64,000 nucleotides of DNA from Candidatus Moraniibacteriota bacterium (GTDB lineage Bacteria; Patescibacteriota; Minisyncoccia; Moranbacterales; UBA1568). Location: the NCBI GenBank assembly GCA_963743885.1, contig CAVURJ010000001.1:566321-630320 (forward strand), in the 5' to 3' direction. Position numbers and translations under genes: made by a program. Of this stretch, positions 33,527 through 52,611 are shown one piece after another. Each line of letters opens with the position of its first letter. Position 1 is the stretch's first letter. Below the pieces are notes generated by a model. It was not told the DNA's origin and searched no databases. It saw only the letters and a list, made by a program, of their open reading frames with translations.

Positions 33527-35149
33527 ATGGGCCAGATCATTCTTGTAGCAGCCATATTGAATATCTTCCTCGGGGCACTCGCTTTGGGAAGAGGCGAGAG
33601 AAAGAAAGAGATCATTTCTTTCGGTTGGTTCTGCATCATTACTGGCTTTTGGGGACTTTCGAATTTCATCGCGTACTATGTTTTTTTTGATGCGGTCCTT
33701 GTCCGGCTGACATATGCCTCTGGTGCGCTCATGGTCGCATCGCTCTTTGCCTGGTCGCTTTTCTACAACGGCCAACTCAAAAGCTATCGGTTGCATATCA
33801 CGGCCTATCTCGCCGGTATCATCATGGGAATACTCTCGATGTTTGACGGATTCGTTGTCGGGGCGATCCGAAGCGTGAGCGTGAGCGGCATCGACGCGGA
33901 TGAAGGCCGATTCTTCGGTCTCTTCAGTCTTTATCTTTTCCTGATGATTATCGGATCGGTTGTCCATGTCGCTATTCTTCGGCATCGGTTTTCCGGTCTT
34001 AAGAGACGTCAGGCGGGGTTTGTCCTGATCGGTGTCTCTATTTTCATGCTCAATACCCTTTTGGTGAGCGGTGTGTTGCCGACATTCGGTATTTTTGACT
34101 ATACCAATCTTGATAGCCCGAGTTCGCTCATCTTCGTCCTGTTCACTATGGTAGCCGTGGTACGTCATAGGCTGCTTGGCGCTAAAGTCATCCTGGCGCA
34201 GGTTTTGGTGGGTGTCCTTGTGGCGACTTCGCTCATCCAGCTGCTTAATTCCCGATCCTTTTCGGATTGGGTGATGAATTCTGTGGCATTGATGACGGTT
34301 CTTGTTGTTGGAGCGCTTCTTGTGAAAAGCGTTATGGACGAAGTGCGGCGCAAGGATGAGCTCGAAAGGATGACGAAGCAGCTGAAGGCTGCCAATCAGG
34401 AGCTGCGTCGATTGGATGTCGCCAAGTCGGAGTTCATTTCCATCGCGTCGCATCAGCTGCGCACGCCGCTCTCCGCCGTCAAAGGCTATGTTTCGCTCAT
34501 GCTCGAGGGATCATATGGTGTAGTAAGCACCAAGATGCAGGACGCACTCGATAAGGTGTATCTCATCAATGGTCACCTTGCTTCGCTCGTTGATGACCTC
34601 CTGGATATCTCACGTATCGAATCCGGGAAGGTAGAGTACCATTTTATCCCGCTCAGCCTTGAGCTGATCGTCTCTGAGATTGCCGACATGTTCGCTGTCT
34701 TAGCAAGGAGTAGGGGGGTATCTTTGGAGCTAGTCTCTCCGAAGAAACCGTTGCCGAAACTTCCGCTCGACGAGAGCAAGATACGTGAAGTCGTTTCGAA
34801 CCTCATCGACAATGCTCTCAAGTATACCGAGCGGGGCAGGGTGAAGGTGTCTTTCGAATCGCATGCGCGGTCGGTGCGGCTCATCGTTGAAGACACGGGC
34901 GCAGGCATCGCTGCTGAGGATATGCCGCGCCTTTTTGAGAAATTCATCCGCAGCCGCAACACATCGGTAATCGATGTCTCGGGCACTGGTCTCGGGCTCT
35001 ATGTGAGCCGCAATTTCATCGAAGCGCACGGCGGCCGGATCTGGGCAGAGTCTGAAGGTCTCGGCAGAGGCTCGCGTTTTATCGTGGAGTTGCCAATCCG
35101 ACGGGAGAAAAAAGTGGTTTCACTAGCAAAAACCGATTTTAGTCATTGA
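33527..35149 (+). CDS. Sensor histidine kinase with a polytopic N-terminal membrane domain
   Basis: HisKA H-box SEFISIASHQLRTPL, and HATPase_c motifs (N box, G1 DTGAGI, G2 GTGLGLYV). Confidence 0.85.
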   Translation: MGQIILVAAILNIFLGALALGRGERKKEIISFGWFCIITGFWGLSNFIAYYVFFDAVLVRLTYASGALMVASLFAWSLFYNGQLKSYRLHITAYLAGIIMGILSMFDGFVVGAIRSVSVSGIDADEGRFFGLFSLYLFLMIIGSVVHVAILRHRFSGLKRRQAGFVLIGVSIFMLNTLLVSGVLPTFGIFDYTNLDSPSSLIFVLFTMVAVVRHRLLGAKVILAQVLVGVLVATSLIQLLNSRSFSDWVMNSVALMTVLVVGALLVKSVMDEVRRKDELERMTKQLKAANQELRRLDVAKSEFISIASHQLRTPLSAVKGYVSLMLEGSYGVVSTKMQDALDKVYLINGHLASLVDDLLDISRIESGKVEYHFIPLSLELIVSEIADMFAVLARSRGVSLELVSPKKPLPKLPLDESKIREVVSNLIDNALKYTERGRVKVSFESHARSVRLIVEDTGAGIAAEDMPRLFEKFIRSRNTSVIDVSGTGLGLYVSRNFIEAHGGRIWAESEGLGRGSRFIVELPIRREKKVVSLAKTDFSH

Positions 35150-35197
35150 CAAAGTGGCTTTATTCTACTATTATTTAATGTGTAAGTTTTGAGTTAG

Positions 35198-35617
35198 TTG
35201 GTTTTTTTATACTATTTTTTAATGGATATGGAGGGACAGACGCATTTCGGTGAACATTTGATGCTGGATGGTTACGGTGGATCATTCGAAAAACTGAACG
35301 ACAAGGACTTGGTGCTCGCGTCGCTCAATGAACTACCAGAAATGCTTGATATGCATAAGCTGGCCGAACCTGAAGTATACTTTGCTGAGGGTAATGGAGG
35401 GAAGGATCCGGGCGGTTGGAGCGGCTTCGTTGTCATCCAGGAGAGTCATATCAGCATCCATACTTTTCCAGCTCGCGGATTCGTGAGCATCGATGCGTAT
35501 ACCTGTAAGAACGGACTGGATACGGAGAGGGTTATCGGGTATTTCACTGATCGTTTCGAACTCAAGGATACTGAAGTGAATCTTATTGAGAGAGGAAAAA
35601 AATATACACAAGAATAA
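35198..35617 (+). CDS. speH: S-adenosylmethionine decarboxylase proenzyme (SpeH-type, pyruvoyl-dependent)
   Basis: ESHISIHTFP self-cleavage motif and DAYTCKNG. The protein is small, as in the archaeal/bacterial SpeH type. An alternative start is at 35225/35231. Confidence 0.75.
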   Translation: MVFLYYFLMDMEGQTHFGEHLMLDGYGGSFEKLNDKDLVLASLNELPEMLDMHKLAEPEVYFAEGNGGKDPGGWSGFVVIQESHISIHTFPARGFVSIDAYTCKNGLDTERVIGYFTDRFELKDTEVNLIERGKKYTQE

Positions 35618-35623
35618 ATTTCT

Positions 35624-35700
35624 TATTACCAAACGAAGCGAGTGAAACGAAAGCGTACTTTTGTTTCCGAGCGCAGTGTTGGTAAAATCGGGTCAATACC
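35624..35700 (+). repeat. ~80-nt intergenic repeat, copy 2
   Basis: attaccaaacgaagcgagtGAAACGAAAGcgtaCTTTTGTTTCcgagcgcagtgttggtaaaatcgggtcaataccc. Confidence 0.7.
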
Positions 35701-35770
35701 CGTTATTTTGATGTCACACTGGATATTTTCCAGGACATATTTCGGAATGAGTTATTTTGACAACCTTTGA

Positions 35771-36241
35771 TTGCCGAGGAGGCAGGAAATGAAACTGAGA
35801 AAGCAGCTGAGCTGGTTTACTGGCGCGCTGTTCGCGCTTCTTTGTGTGTTGTTTATCGTAACCTGGTGGCGTGACGGGTCAGAGTTTTTCAATGAGTCGT
35901 ATGGTATCGATCCGGTGCTTCTGACGGTAATTGCGATAGGTACGGAAGTGCTGTTCAATATCGGTGTCGTCATGATGCTGGTCGGGAGCGGGATGCACAG
36001 GCTGACCATTAAGGAAATATGGGATTTTGATTTTGAGAGAATCCGTTTTTCTGGTAATTTGGTGCATGTTGGATTCTGGTTGAACCGCGTTGTCTCGGCT
36101 GTGCCATCGAGCTATGTCTTGCTCGTCGGGTTTTCGAAGCTGCCTGGCTGGGTGAATACCCTTCTTTTTCTCGAGCTTTTTGGCGTAGTATTGGCCGGAT
36201 TTCTCATCAAGTCGTATCTTTTGGAAGAACGAACGGTTTGA
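35771..36241 (+). CDS. Small membrane protein, function unknown
   Basis: Three or four hydrophobic helices. Confidence 0.4.
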   Translation: MPRRQEMKLRKQLSWFTGALFALLCVLFIVTWWRDGSEFFNESYGIDPVLLTVIAIGTEVLFNIGVVMMLVGSGMHRLTIKEIWDFDFERIRFSGNLVHVGFWLNRVVSAVPSSYVLLVGFSKLPGWVNTLLFLELFGVVLAGFLIKSYLLEERTV

Positions 36242-36266
36242 AAGTATCTGGTTGGCATGTGTGACG

Positions 36267-36311
36267 AAAAAAAACAGCGGGAACGTTCCGAATGGAATGT
36301 TCCCGCTTTTC
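36267..36311. terminator. Bidirectional rho-independent terminator between convergent genes
   Basis: AAAAAAAA, then AGCGGGAAC ... GTTCCCGCT, then TTTT. Confidence 0.7.
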
Positions 36312-36313
36312 CT

Positions 36314-37030
36314 TTAGAGTAGCCATCGGCGAGCGAGACGCGCAATGTTGTCCATAATCTTTTTCGGAATCCATCGTGTGTATCGGTAGAACGGATTCGG
36401 ATAAAACATCAGGACCCCATAGTTACAACTGTCAGGATCTTCCATATATCCAGGAATAATCCGGATGACGTTGAATCCGTCGTTTTGATACATGCGAACT
36501 TCTGGGTCGCGGCTCCGACCGTTTTTACCGAAGACATGATCTTCTATGGTTGTTGTCGCTGACCGTTTTCTAAATCCCGGGACTCGTGATCCAAGGAAGA
36601 CTCCTTTTTTTCCGGAGAGAATCACGAAGAACAGGATACTTTTTTCGACTAATTGATCGCCTACATCTTTTCCTTGGGCAGATGGTAGGACCGAAAGGTC
36701 GAGACCGAATGCGCTATCACCATTTTTGTTGTGGGTTAAAAATGTTCCATCGGCACTGGTGATTTCCCAAGTTTCTGCATTGAGCGCATCGTGTTCATTT
36801 AAGTAAATAGCACTCATAGTTCCTACAACTACACCATTTTTTGTAGCGCAATAAATAGTGTTGGGACAATGTAGAAATTGAGAGAGAACCTTTTCTCTGG
36901 TCCATAAATAACGCTCTGGAACATCTGGCCATACTTCTCGATTGATTTCGACGAATCGGTCAGCAAGGGCGATTTGGTCGTGGCCATGATGAAGTAAATC
37001 AGCGATGCACTTAATTGTGGTGCGGTACAT
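36314..37030 (-). CDS. Putative GNAT-family N-acetyltransferase, encoded in an AT-rich region
   Basis: VLPSAQGKDVGDQLVEKSI resembles the GNAT acetyl-CoA binding motif A (Q/R-x-x-G-x-G/A). Composition is markedly lower in GC than the flanking sequence. Confidence 0.35.
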   Translation of the reverse strand: MYRTTIKCIADLLHHGHDQIALADRFVEINREVWPDVPERYLWTREKVLSQFLHCPNTIYCATKNGVVVGTMSAIYLNEHDALNAETWEITSADGTFLTHNKNGDSAFGLDLSVLPSAQGKDVGDQLVEKSILFFVILSGKKGVFLGSRVPGFRKRSATTTIEDHVFGKNGRSRDPEVRMYQNDGFNVIRIIPGYMEDPDSCNYGVLMFYPNPFYRYTRWIPKKIMDNIARLARRWLL

Positions 37031-37168
37031 GTAAGCTTCCTTTCTTTGTTAAAGATCAGCCAGGATTATCTCAAAATATTCTTGTTTAGTCAAGCCATTC
37101 CATACTAGTTGTCTTGCTGTTGAGAACAGAAAAAGATACTATGGTAGTAAATAAACCTGTATTCATTT

Positions 37169-38857
37169 ATGTTACTTATTCCTGAAAGCATCTTTCTGTG
37201 GGGAACAGTGTTCCTTGTATTTTTTATTGGAGCCTTTGTTGTTTATAAAGATCCGAAACAATATTTGAATAAGAGTTTTTTTCTATTCACGTTGGCAGTG
37301 ATAATTTGGATTATTGCTGTATACTTTGAGGATAATGTTTCCAATCCGATAACGCGCATTTATTTACTTAATCTTGATTTTTCAGCAGGCGCTTTTTTGG
37401 TGTTTAGTTTGTTGCTGTTGTGTCTTGATATGGTCCAGTCTGATTTGGTGAGAAGGCCACTAGCAAGAGTGTTAATTTTTGTTATTCCGGTTATTTTGAG
37501 TGTTCTTATTTTTAGTTCAGATTTTATTATAAGTGGTTATGAATTTTCAAAATTTGGCATACTAGTTCCGATGTATGGTAGTTTTGGATTTCTTTATGAT
37601 GTGATAGTTGCTATTGTCGCTTTGGCTGGACTTGGCATTGTGTTATGGAAATATAATGACGTTGGTTCTGCTGATAAGACTCGTTACGCATATTTCATGG
37701 TTGGACTTCTTCTTTCTATATTGACCGCGCTGGTCACTAATGTCATCCTTGGCGATTATATACAGAATAGCCCGTATTATAGTATTTATTCTCGCTTCGG
37801 AATTTATGGGATGCTTTTTATAGTCTTGTTTCCGGGTTACGCGATTATTCGGCATAAGCTTTTTAATATTCGTGTAATTGCTGCTGAGACGCTTTCTTTT
37901 CTGATGCTACTTATCATGTTCGTTCAGATATTCTTTTCTGAGAACATGTTCCAGATTTTTGCCAGAGCCCTTTTGTTTCTCGTGTTCTTTATTCTTGTCG
38001 TCATGCTTATTCGTTCCATTGAGAACGAAGTCGAGCGCAAGGAGGAGCTGCAGATGATCTCGGACAGCTTGGCGTCGGCCAATGAGCGGCTGCGACGGCT
38101 CGATAACGCCAAGTCGGAGTTCATCTCCATCGCGTCGCACCAGTTGCGCACACCGCTTACTGCCATCAAGGGATATGTCTCGCTCATCCTCGAGGGGTCG
38201 TACGGCAAGGTGAGCGCGGAAGTGGAGGACGTGCTCGAGAAAGTGTACGGGGTCCAGGGGCAGCTCGCGCAGCTCGTCGAGGATTTGCTCAATGTCTCTC
38301 GCATCGAGTCTGGTCGTATCCAGTATCAGTATGCGCCGGTCCGACTTGAGATGATCATCACTGATCTGGTTGATATGTTTTCAATCACAGCCAAGGACAA
38401 GGGAATCGCGCTTCGGATGCATCTCTCCAAGAAGGCGTTGCCACAGCTTACGATCGATGCCGGGAAGATCAAGGAGACAATCTCCAATCTTATCGATAAC
38501 GCCGTGAAGTATACGCCGCAGGGTGGGGAAGTAAGGATTTTTCTTGAGGGCGATGAAGAGCGTCACGTGGCGCGCGTGACCGTCGAGGATACCGGTGTCG
38601 GCATCCTTCCGGAAGATAAGGACAGACTGTTTGAAAAGTTCGTGAGGAGCAAGGAGACGGCGAAGATGGTGACATCTGGCACGGGTCTCGGCCTGTACGT
38701 TGGCAAGAACTTCGTCGAGGCGCATGGCGGCCGGATCTGGGCAGAATCGGAAGGTCAGGGGCAAGGGGCGCGTTTCATTGTGGAGCTGCCGTACGAGTAT
38801 TCCGCTGCCGGTCGTGATGAGGTCGCGACATTCGGCAAGAGCTATGAGGGGAAGTAG
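37169..38857 (+). CDS. Sensor histidine kinase, paralog of the gene at 33527, with a different AT-rich N-terminal membrane sensor domain
   Basis: H-box SEFISIASHQLRTPL and HATPase_c motifs. The N-terminal ~260 codons are AT-rich, while the kinase core is GC-rich. Confidence 0.85.
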   Translation: MLLIPESIFLWGTVFLVFFIGAFVVYKDPKQYLNKSFFLFTLAVIIWIIAVYFEDNVSNPITRIYLLNLDFSAGAFLVFSLLLLCLDMVQSDLVRRPLARVLIFVIPVILSVLIFSSDFIISGYEFSKFGILVPMYGSFGFLYDVIVAIVALAGLGIVLWKYNDVGSADKTRYAYFMVGLLLSILTALVTNVILGDYIQNSPYYSIYSRFGIYGMLFIVLFPGYAIIRHKLFNIRVIAAETLSFLMLLIMFVQIFFSENMFQIFARALLFLVFFILVVMLIRSIENEVERKEELQMISDSLASANERLRRLDNAKSEFISIASHQLRTPLTAIKGYVSLILEGSYGKVSAEVEDVLEKVYGVQGQLAQLVEDLLNVSRIESGRIQYQYAPVRLEMIITDLVDMFSITAKDKGIALRMHLSKKALPQLTIDAGKIKETISNLIDNAVKYTPQGGEVRIFLEGDEERHVARVTVEDTGVGILPEDKDRLFEKFVRSKETAKMVTSGTGLGLYVGKNFVEAHGGRIWAESEGQGQGARFIVELPYEYSAAGRDEVATFGKSYEGK

Positions 38858-47680: not shown

Positions 47681-49138
47681 CGCGAAGACATTCTGGCGAC
47701 CAAAGAAGAAAAACTCGGTACCCTGACTAAGGCTTTCGGGACAGCGTATCCGGAGCAGTGCGGCCGTACCCACGCCGTGGCTGATGTACTCGGTGGCTTT
47801 GACGCACTTCTACAATCAGGCGACCAGGTGACGATTGCGGGCCGTGTGAAGTCTCTTCGCATGATGGGCAAGATCGGTTTCGCACACATCGAGGATGGGA
47901 GCGGCAAGATGCAGATTTTTCTTTCCGAGCAGGCGACCGGTCTGGATACGCTCAAGCTCTTTGCAGATACTATCGAGATTGGCGATTTCGTCGAGGCGAC
48001 CGGTAAGGCGTTCCTGACCAAGAAGGAAGAGAAGACGATCGAGGTGGCTGGCTGGAAGATCCTCGGTAAGTCCATGCGTCCGATCCCGACCGAGCACTTC
48101 GGACTCCAGGATGAGGAGGAGAAGCTTCGCCGCCGCTATCTTGATTTGCTTTCCAATCCTGAGACGCGCGATATCTTTGTGAAGAAGAATGCTTTCTGGC
48201 AGACGGTACGTACGTTGCTCTCGAGCGAGAAGTTTCTTGAGGTCCAGACGCCAGTCCTCGAGCATATCCCGGGCGGCGCCGAAGCCGAGCCGTTCGTCAC
48301 GCATCACAATGCGCTCGATGCTGATTTTTATCTTCGCATCTCACTCGAGCTTTCGCTCAAGCGTCTCCTGGTCGGCGGATACGAGCGGGTCTTCGAGATC
48401 GGTCGCGTCTTCCGCAACGAGGGCATCGACCGCGAGCATCTCCAGGAGTTCGACCACATGGAGTTCTATGCGGCCTATATGGACATGGAGCAGGGTATGG
48501 CGCTTGTGGAGAAGATGTATCGGGATATCGTGCGCGCGGTCGCTGGCGAGGCTTTGACGACTTCGTACGAGGGCGAGACGATCGATTGGTCGAAGCCATT
48601 CCCGCGCGTCGACTATTTCACCGAATTTAAGAAAGAGACTGATATCGATCTTTCGGATGACGTCAGCGTCGAGGAACTCCAGAAGAAAGCCGATGAGCTC
48701 GGTATCAAGTACGAGAAGAATTACGGTCTCGGTCGCATGATCGATACGCTTTACAAGAAGACGGTCCGTCAGCGCCTGATGCAGCCGTGCCTCCTCGTGG
48801 GACATCCGCTCGCGGTATCGCCCTTGGCGAAGATCGACCCGAAGGATCCGAAGAAGGTGCTTCGCTTCCAGCCGGTCGCGGTCCGAAGCGAGCTCGGCAA
48901 CGGGTTTGCAGAGCTCAATGATCCGGCCGACCAGCGTCGCCGTTTCGAAGAGCAGATGAAGCTCCGCGCCGCGGGCGATGCCGAAGGTATGATGCTCGAT
49001 GAGGATTTCCTCGAAGCGCTCGAATACGGCATGCCGCCGGCGTGCGGCTTCGGCATGAGCGAACGGCTCTTCGCTATTCTCATGGATCGATCCGTTCGCG
49101 AGACGGTCATCTTCCCGCCGATGAAGGGGAGGGAGTAG
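47678..49138 (+). CDS. lysS: Lysyl-tRNA synthetase, class II
   Basis: An OB-fold anticodon-binding N-domain, and class II motifs (FRNEGIDREHLQEFDHMEFY; GFGMSERL). Confidence 0.9.
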   Translation: MREDILATKEEKLGTLTKAFGTAYPEQCGRTHAVADVLGGFDALLQSGDQVTIAGRVKSLRMMGKIGFAHIEDGSGKMQIFLSEQATGLDTLKLFADTIEIGDFVEATGKAFLTKKEEKTIEVAGWKILGKSMRPIPTEHFGLQDEEEKLRRRYLDLLSNPETRDIFVKKNAFWQTVRTLLSSEKFLEVQTPVLEHIPGGAEAEPFVTHHNALDADFYLRISLELSLKRLLVGGYERVFEIGRVFRNEGIDREHLQEFDHMEFYAAYMDMEQGMALVEKMYRDIVRAVAGEALTTSYEGETIDWSKPFPRVDYFTEFKKETDIDLSDDVSVEELQKKADELGIKYEKNYGLGRMIDTLYKKTVRQRLMQPCLLVGHPLAVSPLAKIDPKDPKKVLRFQPVAVRSELGNGFAELNDPADQRRRFEEQMKLRAAGDAEGMMLDEDFLEALEYGMPPACGFGMSERLFAILMDRSVRETVIFPPMKGRE

Positions 49139-49275
49139 TATTTTGTATAGTGTATTAAGTATTATGTATGAAGAGAGCAAGGCTTTGCCTTGCCAAACGC
49201 TTTAAAATAGATTAAAGTTTCTGGGTGCTTTTGTCGCACAATACGCGATACGGCATACGTGATATAGATGAGTTT

Positions 49276-49341
49276 GGATGATTAGCTCAGTTGGTTACCC
49301 GCCCGAACGTACCGTTCGGTACGGGCGGGGAGCACAGCATT
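49276..49341 (+). other. tRNA-like 5' fragment (acceptor GGATGAT, D-arm GCTC-AGTTGGTTA-GAGC) carrying a 32-nt GC-rich palindromic insert in the D-loop
   Basis: GGATGATTAGCTCAGTTGGTTA [cccgcccgaacgtaccgttcggtacgggcggg] GAGCACAGCATT. The anticodon stem cannot close, so this is not a functional tRNA as written. Confidence 0.45.
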
Positions 49342-49349
49342 AACAACCT

Positions 49350-49423
49350 GGTCGCATAGTTCAGTTGGTTAGAACGTTCGATTCACATTCGAAAGGTCCC
49401 TGGTTCGAGTCCAGGTGCGACCA
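49350..49423 (+). tRNA. tRNA-Val (anticodon CAC)
   Basis: Clean cloverleaf: acceptor GGTCGCA/TGCGACC, D-arm AGTTCAGTTGGTTAGAACG, anticodon stem TTCGA/TCGAA with loop TTCACAT, T-arm CCTGG-TTCGAGT-CCAGG, discriminator A. No CCA is encoded. Confidence 0.85.
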
Positions 49424-49440
49424 CAGGAGGAGTTTAAGTG

Positions 49441-49560
49441 GTTCAGTTTCTGCTCGGAGTTGAGCAGTTGGTTACCCGCCCGTACCGAACGGTACGTTCG
49501 GGCGGGGAGCACAGCATTCACATTGCTGGGGTCACTGGTTCGAATCCAGTATTGTCCACA
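49441..49560 (+). other. tRNA-derived partial duplicate: D-loop, the 32-nt insert in reverse orientation, and a tRNA-Val(CAC) 3' portion (CAGCATTCACATTGCTG-GGGTC-ACTGGTTCGAATCCAGT-ATTGTCC)
   Basis: It shares a 40-nt exact block with 49613-49653. No matching 5' acceptor strand is present. Confidence 0.45.
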
Positions 49561-49564
49561 GGAG

Positions 49565-49662
49565 GTTCAGTTTCCGCCAAAGGTGGACCCGCCTCAGGCG
49601 GGGGTTAGAGCGCAGCATTCACATTGCTGGGGTCACTGGTTCGAATCCAGTATCATCCGCAA
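49565..49662 (+). other. tRNA-derived partial duplicate: 3' portion of tRNA-Val(CAC), whose acceptor strand ATCATCC is perfectly complementary to the GGATGAT at 49276
   Basis: ...GAGCGCAGCATTCACATTGCTGGGGTCACTGGTTCGAATCCAGTATCATCCG. Joining 49276-49297 to this 3' portion would reconstitute a perfect 73-nt tRNA-Val(CAC). Confidence 0.45.
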
Positions 49663-49761
49663 AGGTTCACTGGTTCAGAGTCCCCGCCCGAAATCCTCTG
49701 TGTTTAGCACTTCTGCGTACACTTATTAGATTTTCATCTTGATCTGCGCTATTATTGAGAT

Positions 49762-49998
49762 ATGAATAAAAAAGCTTTGCAAAAAAGTCTCATCAGTAAG
49801 GTTGCCTCAAAAGGTGCCGTAAAAAAGAATGTCACCGCCTTTGAGGTATATGGTAACTATAGAAAAGCCGCGGATATTATTGAGCGTGTTGATTTTGCTT
49901 CGGGCAAGAGAGTTATTTTCAAGTCAGATACTGGCTCCACGCTGAATTTTGAGATTAACCGTCATGGAGCCTACTCCACAACAGCGCAAACGATTTAG
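49762..49998 (+). CDS. Hypothetical small protein in a low-GC islet
   Basis: 78 aa, AT-rich, overlapping the next ORF in another frame. It may instead be a frameshifted N-terminal piece of that gene. Confidence 0.3.
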   Translation: MNKKALQKSLISKVASKGAVKKNVTAFEVYGNYRKAADIIERVDFASGKRVIFKSDTGSTLNFEINRHGAYSTTAQTI

Positions 49999-50977
49999 GA
50001 CGACGCAGGATTGGAATGACTACCTTGGTCCGCTTCTCCAATCTGGTACTCCCATCACAGGAGGACAGCTATTTGATTTGCGGAAGGCGTGCTATGTCGA
50101 GATTGAATCACTACGCGGTCGCCCGCTTCTCGTATACGCAACAAAGTTTTTGGAAGGTGTCTTTCCGGGCACGCCGAATCAAATTGATCTGCCGGATATT
50201 GATGGATTTACTGATCTCATCAACTCCATATCCGATTCTGATTCAGTAGATATCTTACTCCATAGTCCGGGTGGGCGTCCCGACGCAACAGAGCGCATCG
50301 TAGAGATACTTCGCAACAAGTTCAAGGAAGTTCACTTTCTTGTCCCGCACTCCGCGTATTCAGCGGCTACCATGCTCGCGCTCTCTGGCGATACTATTGT
50401 TTTGCACCCGAGCGCAACTCTTGGCCCGATTGACCCACAACTTGGTATTCCGACCAAGGAGGGTATGGTGCGCTTTACGCCAGCAAAATCTATTCTCAAT
50501 GGCTTTGCAAAAGCGAAAGCCGTTCTCAAAAAGGAGGGGCCGGAATCTCTTCCTGCTTATATCCCGCTTATTGAGAAATATTCCCTTGACCTGCTCGAAT
50601 TATGTGAGGATTCCGAGAAACTCTCGAAGGATTTGGTGTCTTCATGGCTCAGGAAATATATGTTTGCTGGAGAGCATGGCGCTCCGCTCACTCGCAAGGT
50701 AAAGAAAATTGCCAATTTCTTTTCAGATTACGACACCCATCACAGTCATTCACGCTCTTTGTCGCCAGCTAAACTCCAAAATGGGTTTGGCTTGAAAGTA
50801 GAAGTTGCGGATGATGGACTTTGCGATTTGCTTTGGGAGGCACATATTTTACTCAGTGGGTTTTTTAACGCAAGCCAGTTCGTTAAACTTTATGAAAGCA
50901 CTCATGGAGTATCGTGGGGTAAACAATTTCAAGTAACGCTTGCTCCACAACAAGCTCCTCAGCAGAAACCGAAATAA
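49964..50977 (+). CDS. ClpP/S49-fold serine peptidase-like protein (SDH 'serine dehydrogenase proteinase' family-like)
   Basis: LLHSPGGRPDATERIVEIL...HFLVPHSAYSAATMLALSGDTIVLHPSATLGPIDPQ resembles the S49/SppA-ClpP fold nucleophile region. It sits in a low-GC region adjacent to the tRNA fragments. Confidence 0.5.
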   Translation: MEPTPQQRKRFRTTQDWNDYLGPLLQSGTPITGGQLFDLRKACYVEIESLRGRPLLVYATKFLEGVFPGTPNQIDLPDIDGFTDLINSISDSDSVDILLHSPGGRPDATERIVEILRNKFKEVHFLVPHSAYSAATMLALSGDTIVLHPSATLGPIDPQLGIPTKEGMVRFTPAKSILNGFAKAKAVLKKEGPESLPAYIPLIEKYSLDLLELCEDSEKLSKDLVSSWLRKYMFAGEHGAPLTRKVKKIANFFSDYDTHHSHSRSLSPAKLQNGFGLKVEVADDGLCDLLWEAHILLSGFFNASQFVKLYESTHGVSWGKQFQVTLAPQQAPQQKPK

Positions 50978-51107
50978 TAAGGAATGAGGGAGAGCGGCTC
51001 TGTTGGGGGCTTTTCTTTTTGCTTTTTTCAGCCAAAACCGCTACACTAGGAGCTGTAATCACCGTTTTTCTTGATTCTTGTCTCTTGATTCTTTACTCTT
51101 CTTCAAT

Positions 51108-52536: not shown

Positions 52537-52609
52537 GGGTGCGTAGCTCAGTCGGTAGAGCAGTGGCCTTTTAAGCCAACGGTCGAGGGTTCGATTCCCC
52601 CCGCACCCA
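52537..52609 (+). tRNA. tRNA-Lys (anticodon TTT)
   Basis: Acceptor GGGTGCG/CGCACCC, D-arm GCTC-AGTCGGTA-GAGC, anticodon stem GTGGC/GCCAA with loop CTTTTAA, T-arm GAGGG-TTCGATT-CCCCC, discriminator A. Confidence 0.85.
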
Positions 52610-52611
52610 CA

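Follow-up and report, generated by a model that had tools for sequence, protein, structure and literature searches.

The window, that is, the whole 64,000-nt stretch of DNA analysed here, belongs to a metagenome-derived Candidatus Moranbacteria (CPR) genome and carries a tRNA-Val cluster in the gap between lysS and serS (Table 1). One gene of this cluster, at 49350–49423, is intact. It scores 72.3 bits with Rfam, is identified as Val-CAC by ARAGORN and is the only strong tRNA at the locus. It is flanked by one 5' fragment (fragment A) and two 5'-truncated copies (C and D), which derive from two other tRNA-Val alleles, and all broken copies contain hairpin inserts in the D-loop. None of the pieces outside 49350–49423 combines a complete cloverleaf, an Rfam gathering score and a paired acceptor stem. 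Fragment A gives no tRNA call with ARAGORN or Rfam, and copy D reaches 28.0 bits in Rfam, under the 29-bit threshold. A second call, which stems from copy C (49487–49558; 32.6 bits, ARAGORN and Rfam, threshold 29 bits), has one acceptor mismatch and an atypical D-loop. Because it borrows its acceptor and D arm from one half of the palindromic insert, we treat it as a pseudo-call. In line with this, an earlier note on this DNA had stated that 49350–49423 alone folds as a normal tRNA.

Table 1. Features of the tRNA-Val locus and the adjoining islet, numbered from the first letter of the window.
Feature	Position	Strand	Remarks
Promoter-like site TTGCCA-17-TAAAGT	49190–49218	+	Consensus scan only; upstream of original tRNA-Val position
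Fragment A, left: A1 positions 1–21 (GGATGATTAGCTCAGTTGGTTA)	49276–49297	+	Identical to intact A1 in L003, L128, L001
Hairpin P, orientation P+, CCCGCCCGAACGTACCGTTCGGTACGGGCGGG	49298–49329	+	D-loop position 21/22 (GGTTA^GAGC)
Fragment A, right: A1 positions 22–33 (GAGCACAGCATT), ends in anticodon loop	49330–49341	+	
8-nt junction aacaacct	49342–49349	+	Related loci carry GIY-YIG gene here
Intact tRNA-Val(CAC), allele B	49350–49423	+	Identical to sole tRNA-Val of L002, different flanks
Copy C start: D-arm remnant TTCAGTT, small hairpin CTGCTCGGAGTTGAGCAG (49450–49467), TTGGTTA	49442–49474	+	Read from sequence; D3 repeat
Hairpin P, orientation P-	49475–49506	-	Position 21/22 again; exact reverse complement of 49298–49329; flanks as in first copy (CAGTTGGTTA / GAGCACAGCATT)
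Copy C: allele A2 positions 22–76, ends ATTGTCCA	49507–49558	+	
Copy D start: TTCAGTT, mini-hairpins TCCGCCAAAGGTGGA (49573–49587) and CCCGCCTCAGGCGGG (49588–49602), GGTTA	49566–49607	+	
Copy D: allele A1 positions 22–76, ends ATCATCCG	49608–49659	+	Other half of gene begun at 49276; two differences from A1 of L003
Degenerate D-arm-like stretch, then truncated third P (CCCGCCCGAA, 49683–49692)	49666–49692	+	Cargo-islet border; tentatively a fourth unit
Strain-specific cargo islet	49693–51044	+	Neighbour of tRNA-Val cluster
Islet ORF, 78 aa	49762–49998	+	
Islet ORF, 342 aa, SDH-type ClpP-like protease	49949–50977	+	
Terminator-like site in islet	50996–51011	+	
Conserved border motif TTTTCAGCCAAAACCGCTA	ends at 51044	+	

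Fragment A corresponds to tRNA positions 1–33, interrupted in the D-loop by a 32-nt palindrome, hereafter hairpin P, whose DNA fold has an energy of -12 kcal/mol. The same palindrome recurs in copy C between the same flanks as an exact reverse complement, a match that was seen in 0 of 100 shuffled sequences. Copy D carries a different insert, composed of two mini-hairpins at AGTT^GGTTA. The 3' parts of copies C and D are 93% identical over 54 nt (49608–49661 vs 49507–49560). The earlier note had recognised the interrupted 5' half, the two 3' portions, the opposite orientations of the D-loop palindrome and a third cccgcccgaa motif, all of which are present as described. Clamp hairpins of this type are restricted to the tRNA-Val locus within the 64 kb, where P amounts to two and a third copies, and the window as a whole shows no excess of GC hairpins (86 vs 67 in shuffles, shuffle maximum 87).

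All three alleles have intact counterparts in relatives. The outer halves belong to allele A1 (GGATGAT/ATCATCC) and the middle 3' copy to allele A2 (ATTGTCC), each of which is an intact gene at this locus in related genomes. A1 occupies exactly the same place in L003, L128 and L001, which bears out the earlier proposal that the outermost 5' half and the outermost 3' portion once formed a single gene. A2 of L132/L134 matches copy C through the compared part, ending ...CCAGTATT, while L005 and L129 show the ATTGTCCA end in their A2 genes. The double mini-hairpin insert of copy D has a homologue in L001, where the first stem shows a compensatory change, and another in L011 (Bdellovibrionales). 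Upstream, the promoter-like block is kept in the relatives L001, L002 and L003 and, judged from its sequence, is probably the native tRNA promoter. Allele B is the only functional tRNA-Val copy at the locus and probably its most recent arrival.

The cluster is directly followed by a cargo islet. We record the islet as a neighbour and make no claim that it forms a common element with the cluster. GC content is 0.475–0.488 at 49001–51000 and ~0.54 in the surroundings, in agreement with the low-GC stretch of the earlier note, and the cargo of the lysS-serS gap differs in every relative examined. Partial 3' tRNA copies beside a lower-GC islet with foreign, variable cargo might suggest a classical genomic island, in which a tyrosine-integrase element repeatedly integrated and excised at a tRNA-Val attachment site, and the earlier note had interpreted the cluster as such a scar. 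A scar of mobile-DNA turnover at a tRNA gene is indeed supported, but the integrase mechanism is not. Neither an integrase gene nor 3'-end direct repeats flanking the islet are found at the locus, no integrase occurs at the syntenic locus of any relative examined, and the distal islet end has no tRNA piece. Moreover, the duplicates include a 5' half, and all are placed upstream of the islet and no more than 400 nt apart. Among the neighbours of P at 120 loci, no recombinase family is recurrent; the recurrent partner elsewhere is a GIY-YIG nuclease. The island reading is thus largely refuted, and we regard it as very improbable. A lox-like recombinase site for P (12-bp arms, 8-bp spacer) was likewise rejected, as no recombinase recurs nearby.

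Hairpin P belongs to a family that spans several phyla. At least 120 exact matches to its 20-nt core were found in ~70 genomes (CPR, Bacteroidota, Bdellovibrionales, Planctomycetota and others), where simple arithmetic predicts ~1 match by chance. Nearly all copies comprise the full 32-mer (103 perfect, 26 with one mismatch), and in many phyla its position within the tRNA is that seen in the window. Two carriers are cultured isolates (L051 and L111, both Bacteroidota), and in one of them, Cecembia lonarensis LW9 (L051), a nuclease gene lies ~100 nt from the hairpin. Insertion of the 32 nt is exact and without target duplication, with a preference for T at -2 and A at +2, and the hairpin structure is conserved with compensatory changes. 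In 26 of 131 copies P resides inside tRNA-derived sequence with an intact twin nearby, mostly at position 20–23 (others at 9, 13, 16, 17, 50, 55 and 61) and in both orientations. A 5S rRNA gene shows the same pattern, with P in a redundant copy and an intact copy nearby. None of the loci examined has the hairpin in the sole copy of a gene; the hairpins are restricted to redundant gene copies. Otherwise, P is found in other repeats, and also outside RNA genes and far from any nuclease gene, which suggests that the hairpin is able to spread alone. Many copies per genome are often seen in Bacteroidota, including tandem short repeats.

The P core has 0 matches in 2.9 million viral contigs, and a phage origin was dropped on this ground. 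Insertion into the loops of pre-existing palindromes was also considered, with striking cases in L052, L078 and L116. It was dropped as a rule because flanking stems of at least 6 bp, found at 5 of 125 copies, are not in excess of shuffled controls (mean 3.2, maximum 10).

The geometry of the locus poses the question whether the hairpins act at the level of RNA, either as an intron-like insert or through a 32-bp P+/P- duplex that joins split or permuted tRNA halves, or whether the inverted pair flips the DNA segment with tRNA-Val allele B. When the locus is folded in full, P+ and P- pair around tRNA B (z = -13). As read from the sequence, GGATGAT is able to pair with ATTGTCC (two G-U) or, perfectly, with ATCATCC. 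The region as a whole also lies between the only promoter-like site and the only terminator-like site. However, in silico deletion of P restored a detectable tRNA across the junction in none of 129 copies. Rfam returned no group I intron and no other RNA family beyond tRNA, either at the gathering threshold on the window or at E<=10 on 49150–49800, and the intron-like element offered by the earlier note is not supported. The hairpins lie in both orientations relative to transcription (46 vs 29), never in the only copy of a gene, and inverted P pairs around an intact tRNA do not recur at other loci. We know of no bacterial splicing system for such hairpin inserts. The locus does not resemble archaeal-type split or intron-containing tRNA genes either, the host being a CPR bacterium and the interrupted copies redundant. 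As every hairpin subtype is seen in both orientations, the two orientations in the window, correctly noted before, are a property of the hairpin family and provide no evidence for a local invertible switch. Taken together, an RNA-level function or a flipping segment is extremely unlikely.

The only protein family that recurs near P is a stand-alone GIY-YIG nuclease of ~80 aa (Pfam PF01541, E ~1e-12), which is found at 15–16 loci at a median distance of 44 nt. Its alignment shows no variation in the catalytic columns (Tyr, Tyr, Arg, His and Glu), and NCBIfam has no model for this family. With UPF0213 proteins and SLX1 as the nearest solved relatives, the nuclease is placed by its sequence in the UPF0213/SLX1-like, structure-specific branch. 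The association of hairpin, nuclease and tRNA holds in both directions, as is seen in an independent test sample of 80 nuclease genes chosen by protein alone. An intact tRNA lies 0–120 nt downstream of the nuclease gene in 68 of 73 loci (mostly within ~10 nt). A CCCGCCCG...CGGGCGGG clamp hairpin is present in the 200 nt preceding the start codon at 66 of 75 loci and mostly ends 12–35 nt from this codon; the control gave 6 matches in 71 kb on two strands. In 41 of the 66, the hairpin sits at GGT(T)A^GAGC, which corresponds to 21/22 in the 5' fragment of a tRNA.

In other genomes, the intact cassette is ordered as a 5' fragment of the old tRNA, a D-loop hairpin (CCCGCCCG-core-CGGGCGGG), the nuclease gene and a complete tRNA gene, which abuts the end of the ~80-aa GIY-YIG gene. 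Hairpin, small nuclease gene and tRNA gene together make up an apparently undescribed, putatively mobile cassette that is widespread in many bacterial phyla. A text search of the literature found the P 20-mer, in either orientation, in no paper, a keyword search found no description of the hairpin or the cassette, and a paper on tRNA introns in Patescibacteria mentions neither (PMC13011429).

The window itself holds no GIY-YIG gene. The best tblastn match has an E value of 0.03, and weak matches at ~14 kb fall inside a class II aminoacyl-tRNA synthetase gene and were discarded. The link of the window to the nuclease therefore rests on other genomes. What the window does have is a clamp hairpin at the T-A^G of a tRNA 5' fragment (49276–49341) and, downstream on the same strand, an intact tRNA of the same isoacceptor (49350–49423). 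In place of the ~80-aa ORF between them there is a gap of 8 nt, so that we file the window as a cassette relic and not as an intact member. We infer that the junction aacaacct is the remnant of a deleted ORF. Nuclease-bearing loci with a similar layering are L139, L166 and L177. Displaced 3' copies like C and D occur downstream in 5 of 61 nuclease loci, one of them a neighbouring different tRNA, which makes the window an unusually layered case.

We propose, as a probable though by no means secure reading, that a small selfish cassette replaced the resident tRNA-Val several times in succession, and that the locus is the wreckage of these events. It looks like a nested cassette relic from which the nuclease gene has been lost. 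The oldest gene, A1, would have been split into the outermost pieces (49276–49341 and 49566–49659), the next gene, A2, would have been left as the inner truncated copy (49442–49558), and the youngest gene, B, would be the intact copy at the centre. Later deletions would have removed the nuclease genes and the 5' piece of A2, leaving 8 nt between fragment A and B.

A tandem array of this kind could alternatively be created during assembly, if co-existing strains with A1, A2 and B were falsely joined via shared k-mers in the D-loop, the palindrome and the 40-nt block. The source genome is metagenome-derived, each of the three alleles is a single gene in related strains, and the repeats are of a kind that confuses assemblers. 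Yet similar layering is present in many independent assemblies (L001, L021, L098, L139, L166, L177), P also occurs in the two cultured isolates, and the junctions (the aacaacct and caggagg spacers and the mini-hairpins) are unique and absent from the single-gene relatives. As the contig is also 652 kb long, we judge an artefact to be quite improbable.

A further possibility is that the hairpins, as autonomous small repeats of a REP/MITE-like kind, simply accumulate in dead DNA. The tRNA fragments would then stem from a hot spot at which foreign DNA was taken up and joined by homology-assisted illegitimate recombination, and no nuclease would be at work here. This would be consistent with the absence of a nuclease gene from the window, with the many non-tRNA sites of P and its tandem short repeats in Bacteroidota, with the lack of an adjacent nuclease gene in about half of the tRNA-associated P copies, and with the locus being a cargo hot spot in all relatives. 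Against it, clamp hairpins are confined to this locus in 64 kb, and the left junction (fragment 1–33, hairpin at 21/22, intact tRNA) has the exact architecture of a cassette. Furthermore, 88% of the independently sampled nuclease genes have a hairpin 9–90 nt upstream at a defined tRNA position, which is far too regular for passive accumulation. P also lacks what would mark a REP/RAYT system or a MITE: there is no dispersion in 64 kb, no duplication and no recurrent transposase family near it. Passive accumulation is thus unlikely, although it deserves more weight than an artefact of assembly.

How might successive replacement by the cassette proceed? The nuclease probably breaks tRNA-gene DNA at or near the T-A^G sites that flank the D arm. 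Repair from a cassette-bearing copy would then install the nuclease gene and a new tRNA, while part of the old gene stays behind. The hairpin may fill the cut site in the leftover copy and thereby destroy it, and may interrupt a direct repeat that would otherwise delete the cassette. In addition, the hairpin may itself be a DNA substrate of the nuclease, which would account both for the spread of the hairpin and for its occurrence in two orientations. A point against this model is the immunity of the donor, which it leaves unexplained because the presumed cut site is retained in the intact tRNA. A separate idea, that the hairpin marks the border between resident and incoming tRNA sequence, was rejected: it holds in L001 and perhaps L139, and fails in the window and L210.

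More tentatively, and with less than even confidence, we suggest that the clamp hairpin is the substrate of the UPF0213/SLX1-like GIY-YIG nuclease, and that the pair represents a class of mobile element, so far undescribed, by which tRNA and 5S rRNA genes are overwritten in CPR, Bacteroidota, Bdellovibrionales and other bacteria. If so, a hairpin of 32–47 nt could be mobilised alone, in trans, and enter T-N^N-A sites in both orientations. It would then rank with the smallest known mobile DNAs of conserved sequence and would be the first to have a GIY-YIG partner.

Short imperfect palindromes without target duplication are also known from REP/REPIN-RAYT and IS200/IS605-derived elements, which are probably moved in trans by a hairpin-reading nuclease. 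P inserts in the same manner. Unlike in REP/RAYT systems, however, no HUH/RAYT gene recurs near P, there is no conserved GTAG head, the partner is a GIY-YIG protein, and the copies are nearly identical across phyla instead of species-specific and strongly prefer remnants of RNA genes. GC-rich palindromic, insertion-like units of 20–50 nt, sometimes nested and associated with recombination, are found as GC clusters in yeast and fungal mitochondria and as small dispersed repeats in Nostoc. These differ in hosts and sequences and have no defined nuclease partner, whereas for P both a partner gene and a target (T-A^G of the tRNA D-loop) are defined. The flip/flop terminal hairpins of parvoviruses and poxviruses, which are replication telomeres of linear genomes, resemble P in being imperfect palindromes with bulged bases and two mutually inverted forms. 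P, in contrast, is internal to the chromosome, and no hairpin-ended intermediate was seen.

With integrative elements that target tRNA genes by means of tyrosine integrases and have a partial tRNA duplication at attL/attR, the cassette shares its target, the displaced partial copies that remain and the supply of a replacement tRNA, by which the cell keeps a working gene. It differs in the absence of an integrase, in its size of only ~0.4 kb, in the hairpin within the displaced copy and in that the displaced piece is usually the 5' part. Group I introns found within tRNA genes of Patescibacteria are ribozymes of 184–894 nt that splice from the anticodon loop of a working gene (PMC13011429). They occur in the same bacterial group and likewise interrupt tRNA genes near the anticodon loop, but the inserts described here are D-loop hairpins of 15–47 nt, lie in dead copies only and match no intron model. 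A parallel in gene content is SegB, a free-standing GIY-YIG homing endonuclease of the phage T4 tRNA cluster. There, cutting of tRNA-region DNA drives the inheritance of the nuclease gene and its flanks (PMC2330249), and SegB is reported to be able to promote local segmental amplification (PMC13096335). In both cases, the gene of a small GIY-YIG nuclease lies among genes for tRNAs. Unlike the phage gene, the cassette resides in cellular genomes of several phyla, the P core being absent from the viral contigs scanned, and its nuclease consists of no more than an 80-aa catalytic domain, which is of the UPF0213/SLX1-like branch. It also abuts a complete tRNA, leaves a duplicated tRNA fragment and carries a conserved GC-clamp hairpin, none of which is known of SegB.

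Genes for tRNAs are usually taken to be fixed landmarks. The loci described here suggest that a selfish cassette of 0.4 kb, equipped with a tRNA allele of its own, overwrites them again and again. Through such turnover, tRNA alleles would pass from one lineage to another, and pseudogenes tagged with hairpins would be left to mislead tRNA annotation, as illustrated by the one false call in the window. The 32-nt sequence of P hardly varies between phyla, and neither Rfam nor the papers searched contain a match to it. For UPF0213-type GIY-YIG proteins, the fixed genomic partnership with hairpin and tRNA provides a directly testable hypothesis of function, and the cultured Bacteroidota that carry the hairpin make experiments possible. 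The solved structures of stand-alone UPF0213-type GIY-YIG proteins are deposited only as 'Hypothetical UPF0213 protein'.

The earlier note had described the tRNA-Val locus as scrambled and accompanied by direct and inverted repeats. This description is correct: all pieces were found by direct reading of the sequence, and a repeat comparison returned the repeats as described. The intact tRNA-Val(CAC), gene B, is surrounded by a 5' fragment (A) and two 5'-truncated copies (C and D), and a 32-nt GC-rich palindromic hairpin, P, interrupts A and, inverted, C. No further copy of P was found in the 64-kb window, and shuffled sequences gave zero matches. ARAGORN and Rfam call a second tRNA at 49487-49558 (32.6 bits), which is a pseudo-call because half of P serves as its acceptor and D arm in the alignment.

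Coordinates and composition of the features discussed (window positions unless a comparison locus, L, is named)
Feature	Position	Description
Promoter-like block	5' of fragment A	first piece; sequence reading
Fragment A	49276-49341	tRNA-Val positions 1-33, interrupted by P; sequence reading
P (CCCGCCCGAACGTACCGTTCGGTACGGGCGGG)	49298-49329	inserted in fragment A, GGTTA on one side, GAGC on the other
Junction		8 nt, separates fragment A from gene B
Gene B	49350-49423	intact tRNA-Val(CAC), 72.3 bits
Copy C	49442-49558	degenerate D-arm start, small hairpin, inverted P, positions 22-76, terminus ATTGTCCA
Inverted P in copy C	49475-49506	exact reverse complement of P
Copy D	49566-49659	TTCAGTT, two mini-hairpins, GGTTA, positions 22-76, terminus ATCATCCG
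Degenerate D-arm-like stretch	3' of copy D	terminates in P's first 10 nt, 49683-49692
Allele A1	L001, L003, L004, L128	GGATGAT...ATCATCC
Allele A2	L005, L129, L132, L134	GGACAAT...ATTGTCC
Allele B	L002	GGTCGCA...TGCGACC
5S copies	L087 417-523 and 590-710	P in loop E region of second copy
Mirrored cassettes	L094 7620-7900; L023 840-1000; L014 5700-5900	Bacteroidota
P in 12-nt repeats	L009, L015, L025, L028, L039, L042, L047, others	CSMAG_1309, CSMAG_1571
Border motif	51020-51044; L001 2565-2590 and 3150-3175; L002 7690-7715; L003 8228-8250	
tRNA-Lys(TTT), + strand	52537-52610; L001 4658-4733	downstream of serS
tRNA-Lys(TTT), - strand	L002 9157-9232; L003 10352-10426; L005 10452-10525	downstream of serS

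LysRS homologues place the host in Candidatus Moranbacteria. The locus is preceded by aspS, mreBCD, a PBP2 gene, greA and lysS, and followed by serS, tRNA-Lys, frr and rseP. Across eight related assemblies, one intact tRNA-Val(CAC), never more, lies between lysS and serS, together with small cargo genes that differ among all eight. The upstream region is collinear with that of L003, an A1-bearing locus, right up to where fragment A starts; A is therefore the resident A1 gene, severed after position 33. Copy D is the remainder of A1 with 2 differences. The 3' part of copy C corresponds to the A2 allele; it matches L132 and L134 over the available stretch of that gene, and its ATTGTCCA terminus is found in the A2 genes of L005 and L129. 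Gene B is 100% identical to the L002 gene, with different flanks. Remnants of three alleles thus lie in the window, the oldest outermost and the youngest innermost. A smaller equivalent exists at L001: its 5' fragment, 5 nt upstream of the intact gene, has both mini-hairpins of copy D at AGTT^GGTTA, and the stem of the first shows a compensatory change.

When one genome per species was scanned, the 20-nt core of P was found at no fewer than 120 loci, where about one is expected by chance according to our own arithmetic. Those listed come from about 70 genomes of many CPR lineages, Bacteroidota, Bdellovibrionales, Planctomycetota (Scalindua) and a few others. The isolates Cecembia lonarensis LW9 and Zeaxanthinibacter enoshimensis DSM 18435 (both Bacteroidota) also carry P. 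An assembly chimera at the window locus is improbable, since comparable layered loci occur in many independent assemblies and P itself is present in cultured organisms. The core had no match in the viral contigs scanned, P had none among Rfam models, and its sequence was not found in the literature searched. Over every P copy in the collected loci and the window, the clamps flanking the core are nearly always intact (103 perfect, 26 with one mismatch). Insertion is exact, 32 nt long and without target duplication, with a preference for T at -2 and A at +2 (59 distinct targets after clustering).

P lies inside tRNA-derived sequence in 26 of 131 copies, in both orientations and in nine isotypes, mostly at tRNA positions 20-23 but also at 9, 13, 16, 17, 50, 55 and 61. 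Deleting P in silico never restored a tRNA across the junction, and the distance from the P-bearing copy to an intact tRNA of its kind ranges from a few nucleotides up to a few hundred. On the Moraniibacteriota contig L087, the rRNA operon closes with an intact 5S rRNA gene, followed by a diverged, 5'-truncated 5S copy bearing P. P is thus a mark of stable-RNA gene copies that are broken and redundant, with an intact gene beside them. The intron-like insert proposed as an alternative in the earlier note, or a split tRNA, is not supported, as the hairpins occur in both orientations, are confined to redundant copies and match no intron model. A 32-bp duplex between the two orientations is predicted in a long transcript; it follows from the inverted copies and does not speak for a function.

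Some Bacteroidota additionally carry P in many copies within other repeats. In the MAGs CSMAG_1309 and CSMAG_1571, dozens of copies lie within tandem 12-nt repeats (ggactg^ccgact) adjoining a conserved AT-rich block (attaactaattatttatgaaacctgaaaattaag), which looks like a larger repeat family having captured the hairpin. More clamp-like hairpins occur shortly 3' of the truncated 5S copy of L087 (820-900). L035 (Candidatus Moranbacteria RIFCSPHIGHO2_01_FULL_54_31) has a P copy near 4905, whose flanks gave no tRNA match.

At several loci, the P-bearing fragment is separated from the intact tRNA by an ORF of ~80 aa, which encodes a GIY-YIG domain (PF01541, E ~1e-12). Among the P-selected loci listed, it is present at 16 of 120, nearly always 20-300 nt from P, and is the sole recurrent protein family near P. 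In a reverse test of this link, 12 GIY-YIG proteins were aligned, with invariant catalytic Tyr, Tyr, Arg, His and Glu columns, and relatives were fetched from metagenomes. There were at least 600 pattern matches; of the 600 listed, relatives are encoded by 576, and the sample consists of the best 80. In this sample, an intact same-strand tRNA follows the ORF within 120 nt at 68 of the 73 loci with sufficient downstream DNA, mostly within ~10 nt, and a CCCGCCCG...CGGGCGGG hairpin lies within 200 nt 5' of the start codon at 66 of 75. This 88% occupancy of a fixed site 5' of the nuclease gene would be unaccounted for if P were an unrelated repeat accumulating passively, which we consider unlikely. 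The clamp hairpin ends 9-90 nt, mostly 12-35 nt, before the start codon (control: 6 matches in 71 kb, two strands), and most of the nine loci lacking a matching hairpin have degenerate versions. Its site is GGT(T)A^GAGC in 41 of 66 cases; about a dozen others are at GTA^GCTC and a few at 13/14 or in the anticodon loop. P itself accounts for 13 of the 80 sampled loci, the others carrying related cores.

The 3' end of the ORF overlaps the first tRNA bases, a TAG inside the tRNA being its stop codon. The upstream 5' fragment matches the downstream tRNA (at most 3 mismatches in the first 16 nt) at 34 of the 63 assessable loci among the best 80. At several matching loci, and at failed-match loci such as L139, the acceptor strand of the fragment is unlike that of the intact tRNA; the cassette therefore carries in a complete tRNA of its own. 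L139 is one of four sampled loci with tRNA-Val(CAC), and the 5' part of its upstream fragment is the Moranbacteria A2 sequence. Among solved structures, the nuclease comes closest to two UPF0213 proteins (E 1e-12, 3e-9) and to SLX1, a structure-specific endonuclease (E 1e-4). Mirrored cassettes occur in Bacteroidota, where an intact tRNA and the GIY-YIG gene precede a 5'-truncated tRNA copy with P in the T-loop (55/56); this copy also bears other, longer or nested D-loop hairpins.

Every hairpin subtype occurs in both orientations (46 vs 29 relative to the ORF strand). Two small overlapping palindromes lie between the clamps, and therefore either strand can fold into clamp, 4-nt bulge, inner helix and loop. 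In a 36-nt subfamily, the clamp and inner helix 12-17/24-29 are paired 100%, with compensatory changes at two pairs, and an alternative inner helix is 90% paired. As DNA, P has a predicted fold of -12 kcal/mol. Nucleases at least 90% identical have hairpin class and orientation in common, whereas those 80-84% identical may differ (few pairs).

The window locus is probably best read as a relic of this hairpin/GIY-YIG/tRNA cassette family, of which no description was found in the literature searched. Its left junction, an old 5' fragment with a hairpin at 21/22, a short tRNA remainder and an intact foreign-allele tRNA, is the cassette architecture minus the ORF; in other genomes, the ORF is likewise absent beside about half of the P copies associated with tRNAs. 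Copies C and D resemble displaced downstream copies at L166 and L177, which retain the nuclease gene. The order A1(5'), B, A2(3'), A1(3') would result from nested insertions, followed by loss of inner 5' pieces and ORFs. The tRNA attachment-site scar of the earlier note, and with it an integrase-type genomic island at tRNA-Val, is not supported: no integrase and no distal repeat were found, and the 5' tRNA half is present. What the window contains is a dead copy, and its interest lies in the family it revealed.

The nuclease belongs to a structure-specific branch and has no DNA-binding domain; the hairpin sites are T-A^G on both sides of the D arm, and hairpins are found solely in dispensable copies. 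In the simplest account, the nuclease would cut tRNA-gene DNA at T-A^G sites beside the D arm, and a cassette-bearing copy would serve as repair template, so that a new tRNA is installed along with the ORF. The hairpin would fill the site in the leftover copy and block re-cutting, and would also split a 30-45-nt direct repeat that could otherwise delete the cassette. Because it has itself spread to other T-N^N-A sites, in two orientations, the hairpin may be the nuclease's substrate.

In the islet 3' of the tRNA remnants (49762-50977) lie a 78-aa ORF and the gene for an SDH-type ClpP-like serine protease of 342 aa (PF01972, E 8e-15). The genes that relatives have in this place are quite different: unknown ORFs and genes for a methyltransferase, a DUF1360 protein and an MFS transporter. 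Every lysS-serS cargo cassette terminates in a terminator-like hairpin, then the border motif TTTTCAGCCAAAA(C/G)CG(C/A)TA, which is also present 5' of serS in the empty locus and brackets the second cargo gene of L001 as a direct repeat. Small gene cassettes may insert at this motif, which would make it a second insertion site, independent of the first. The strand difference of tRNA-Lys(TTT) suggests that a second tRNA gene is polymorphic, through a small inversion or a replacement. Elsewhere in the window, 35000-38000 is markedly low in GC (0.355 at 37001-38000 vs ~0.54 elsewhere).
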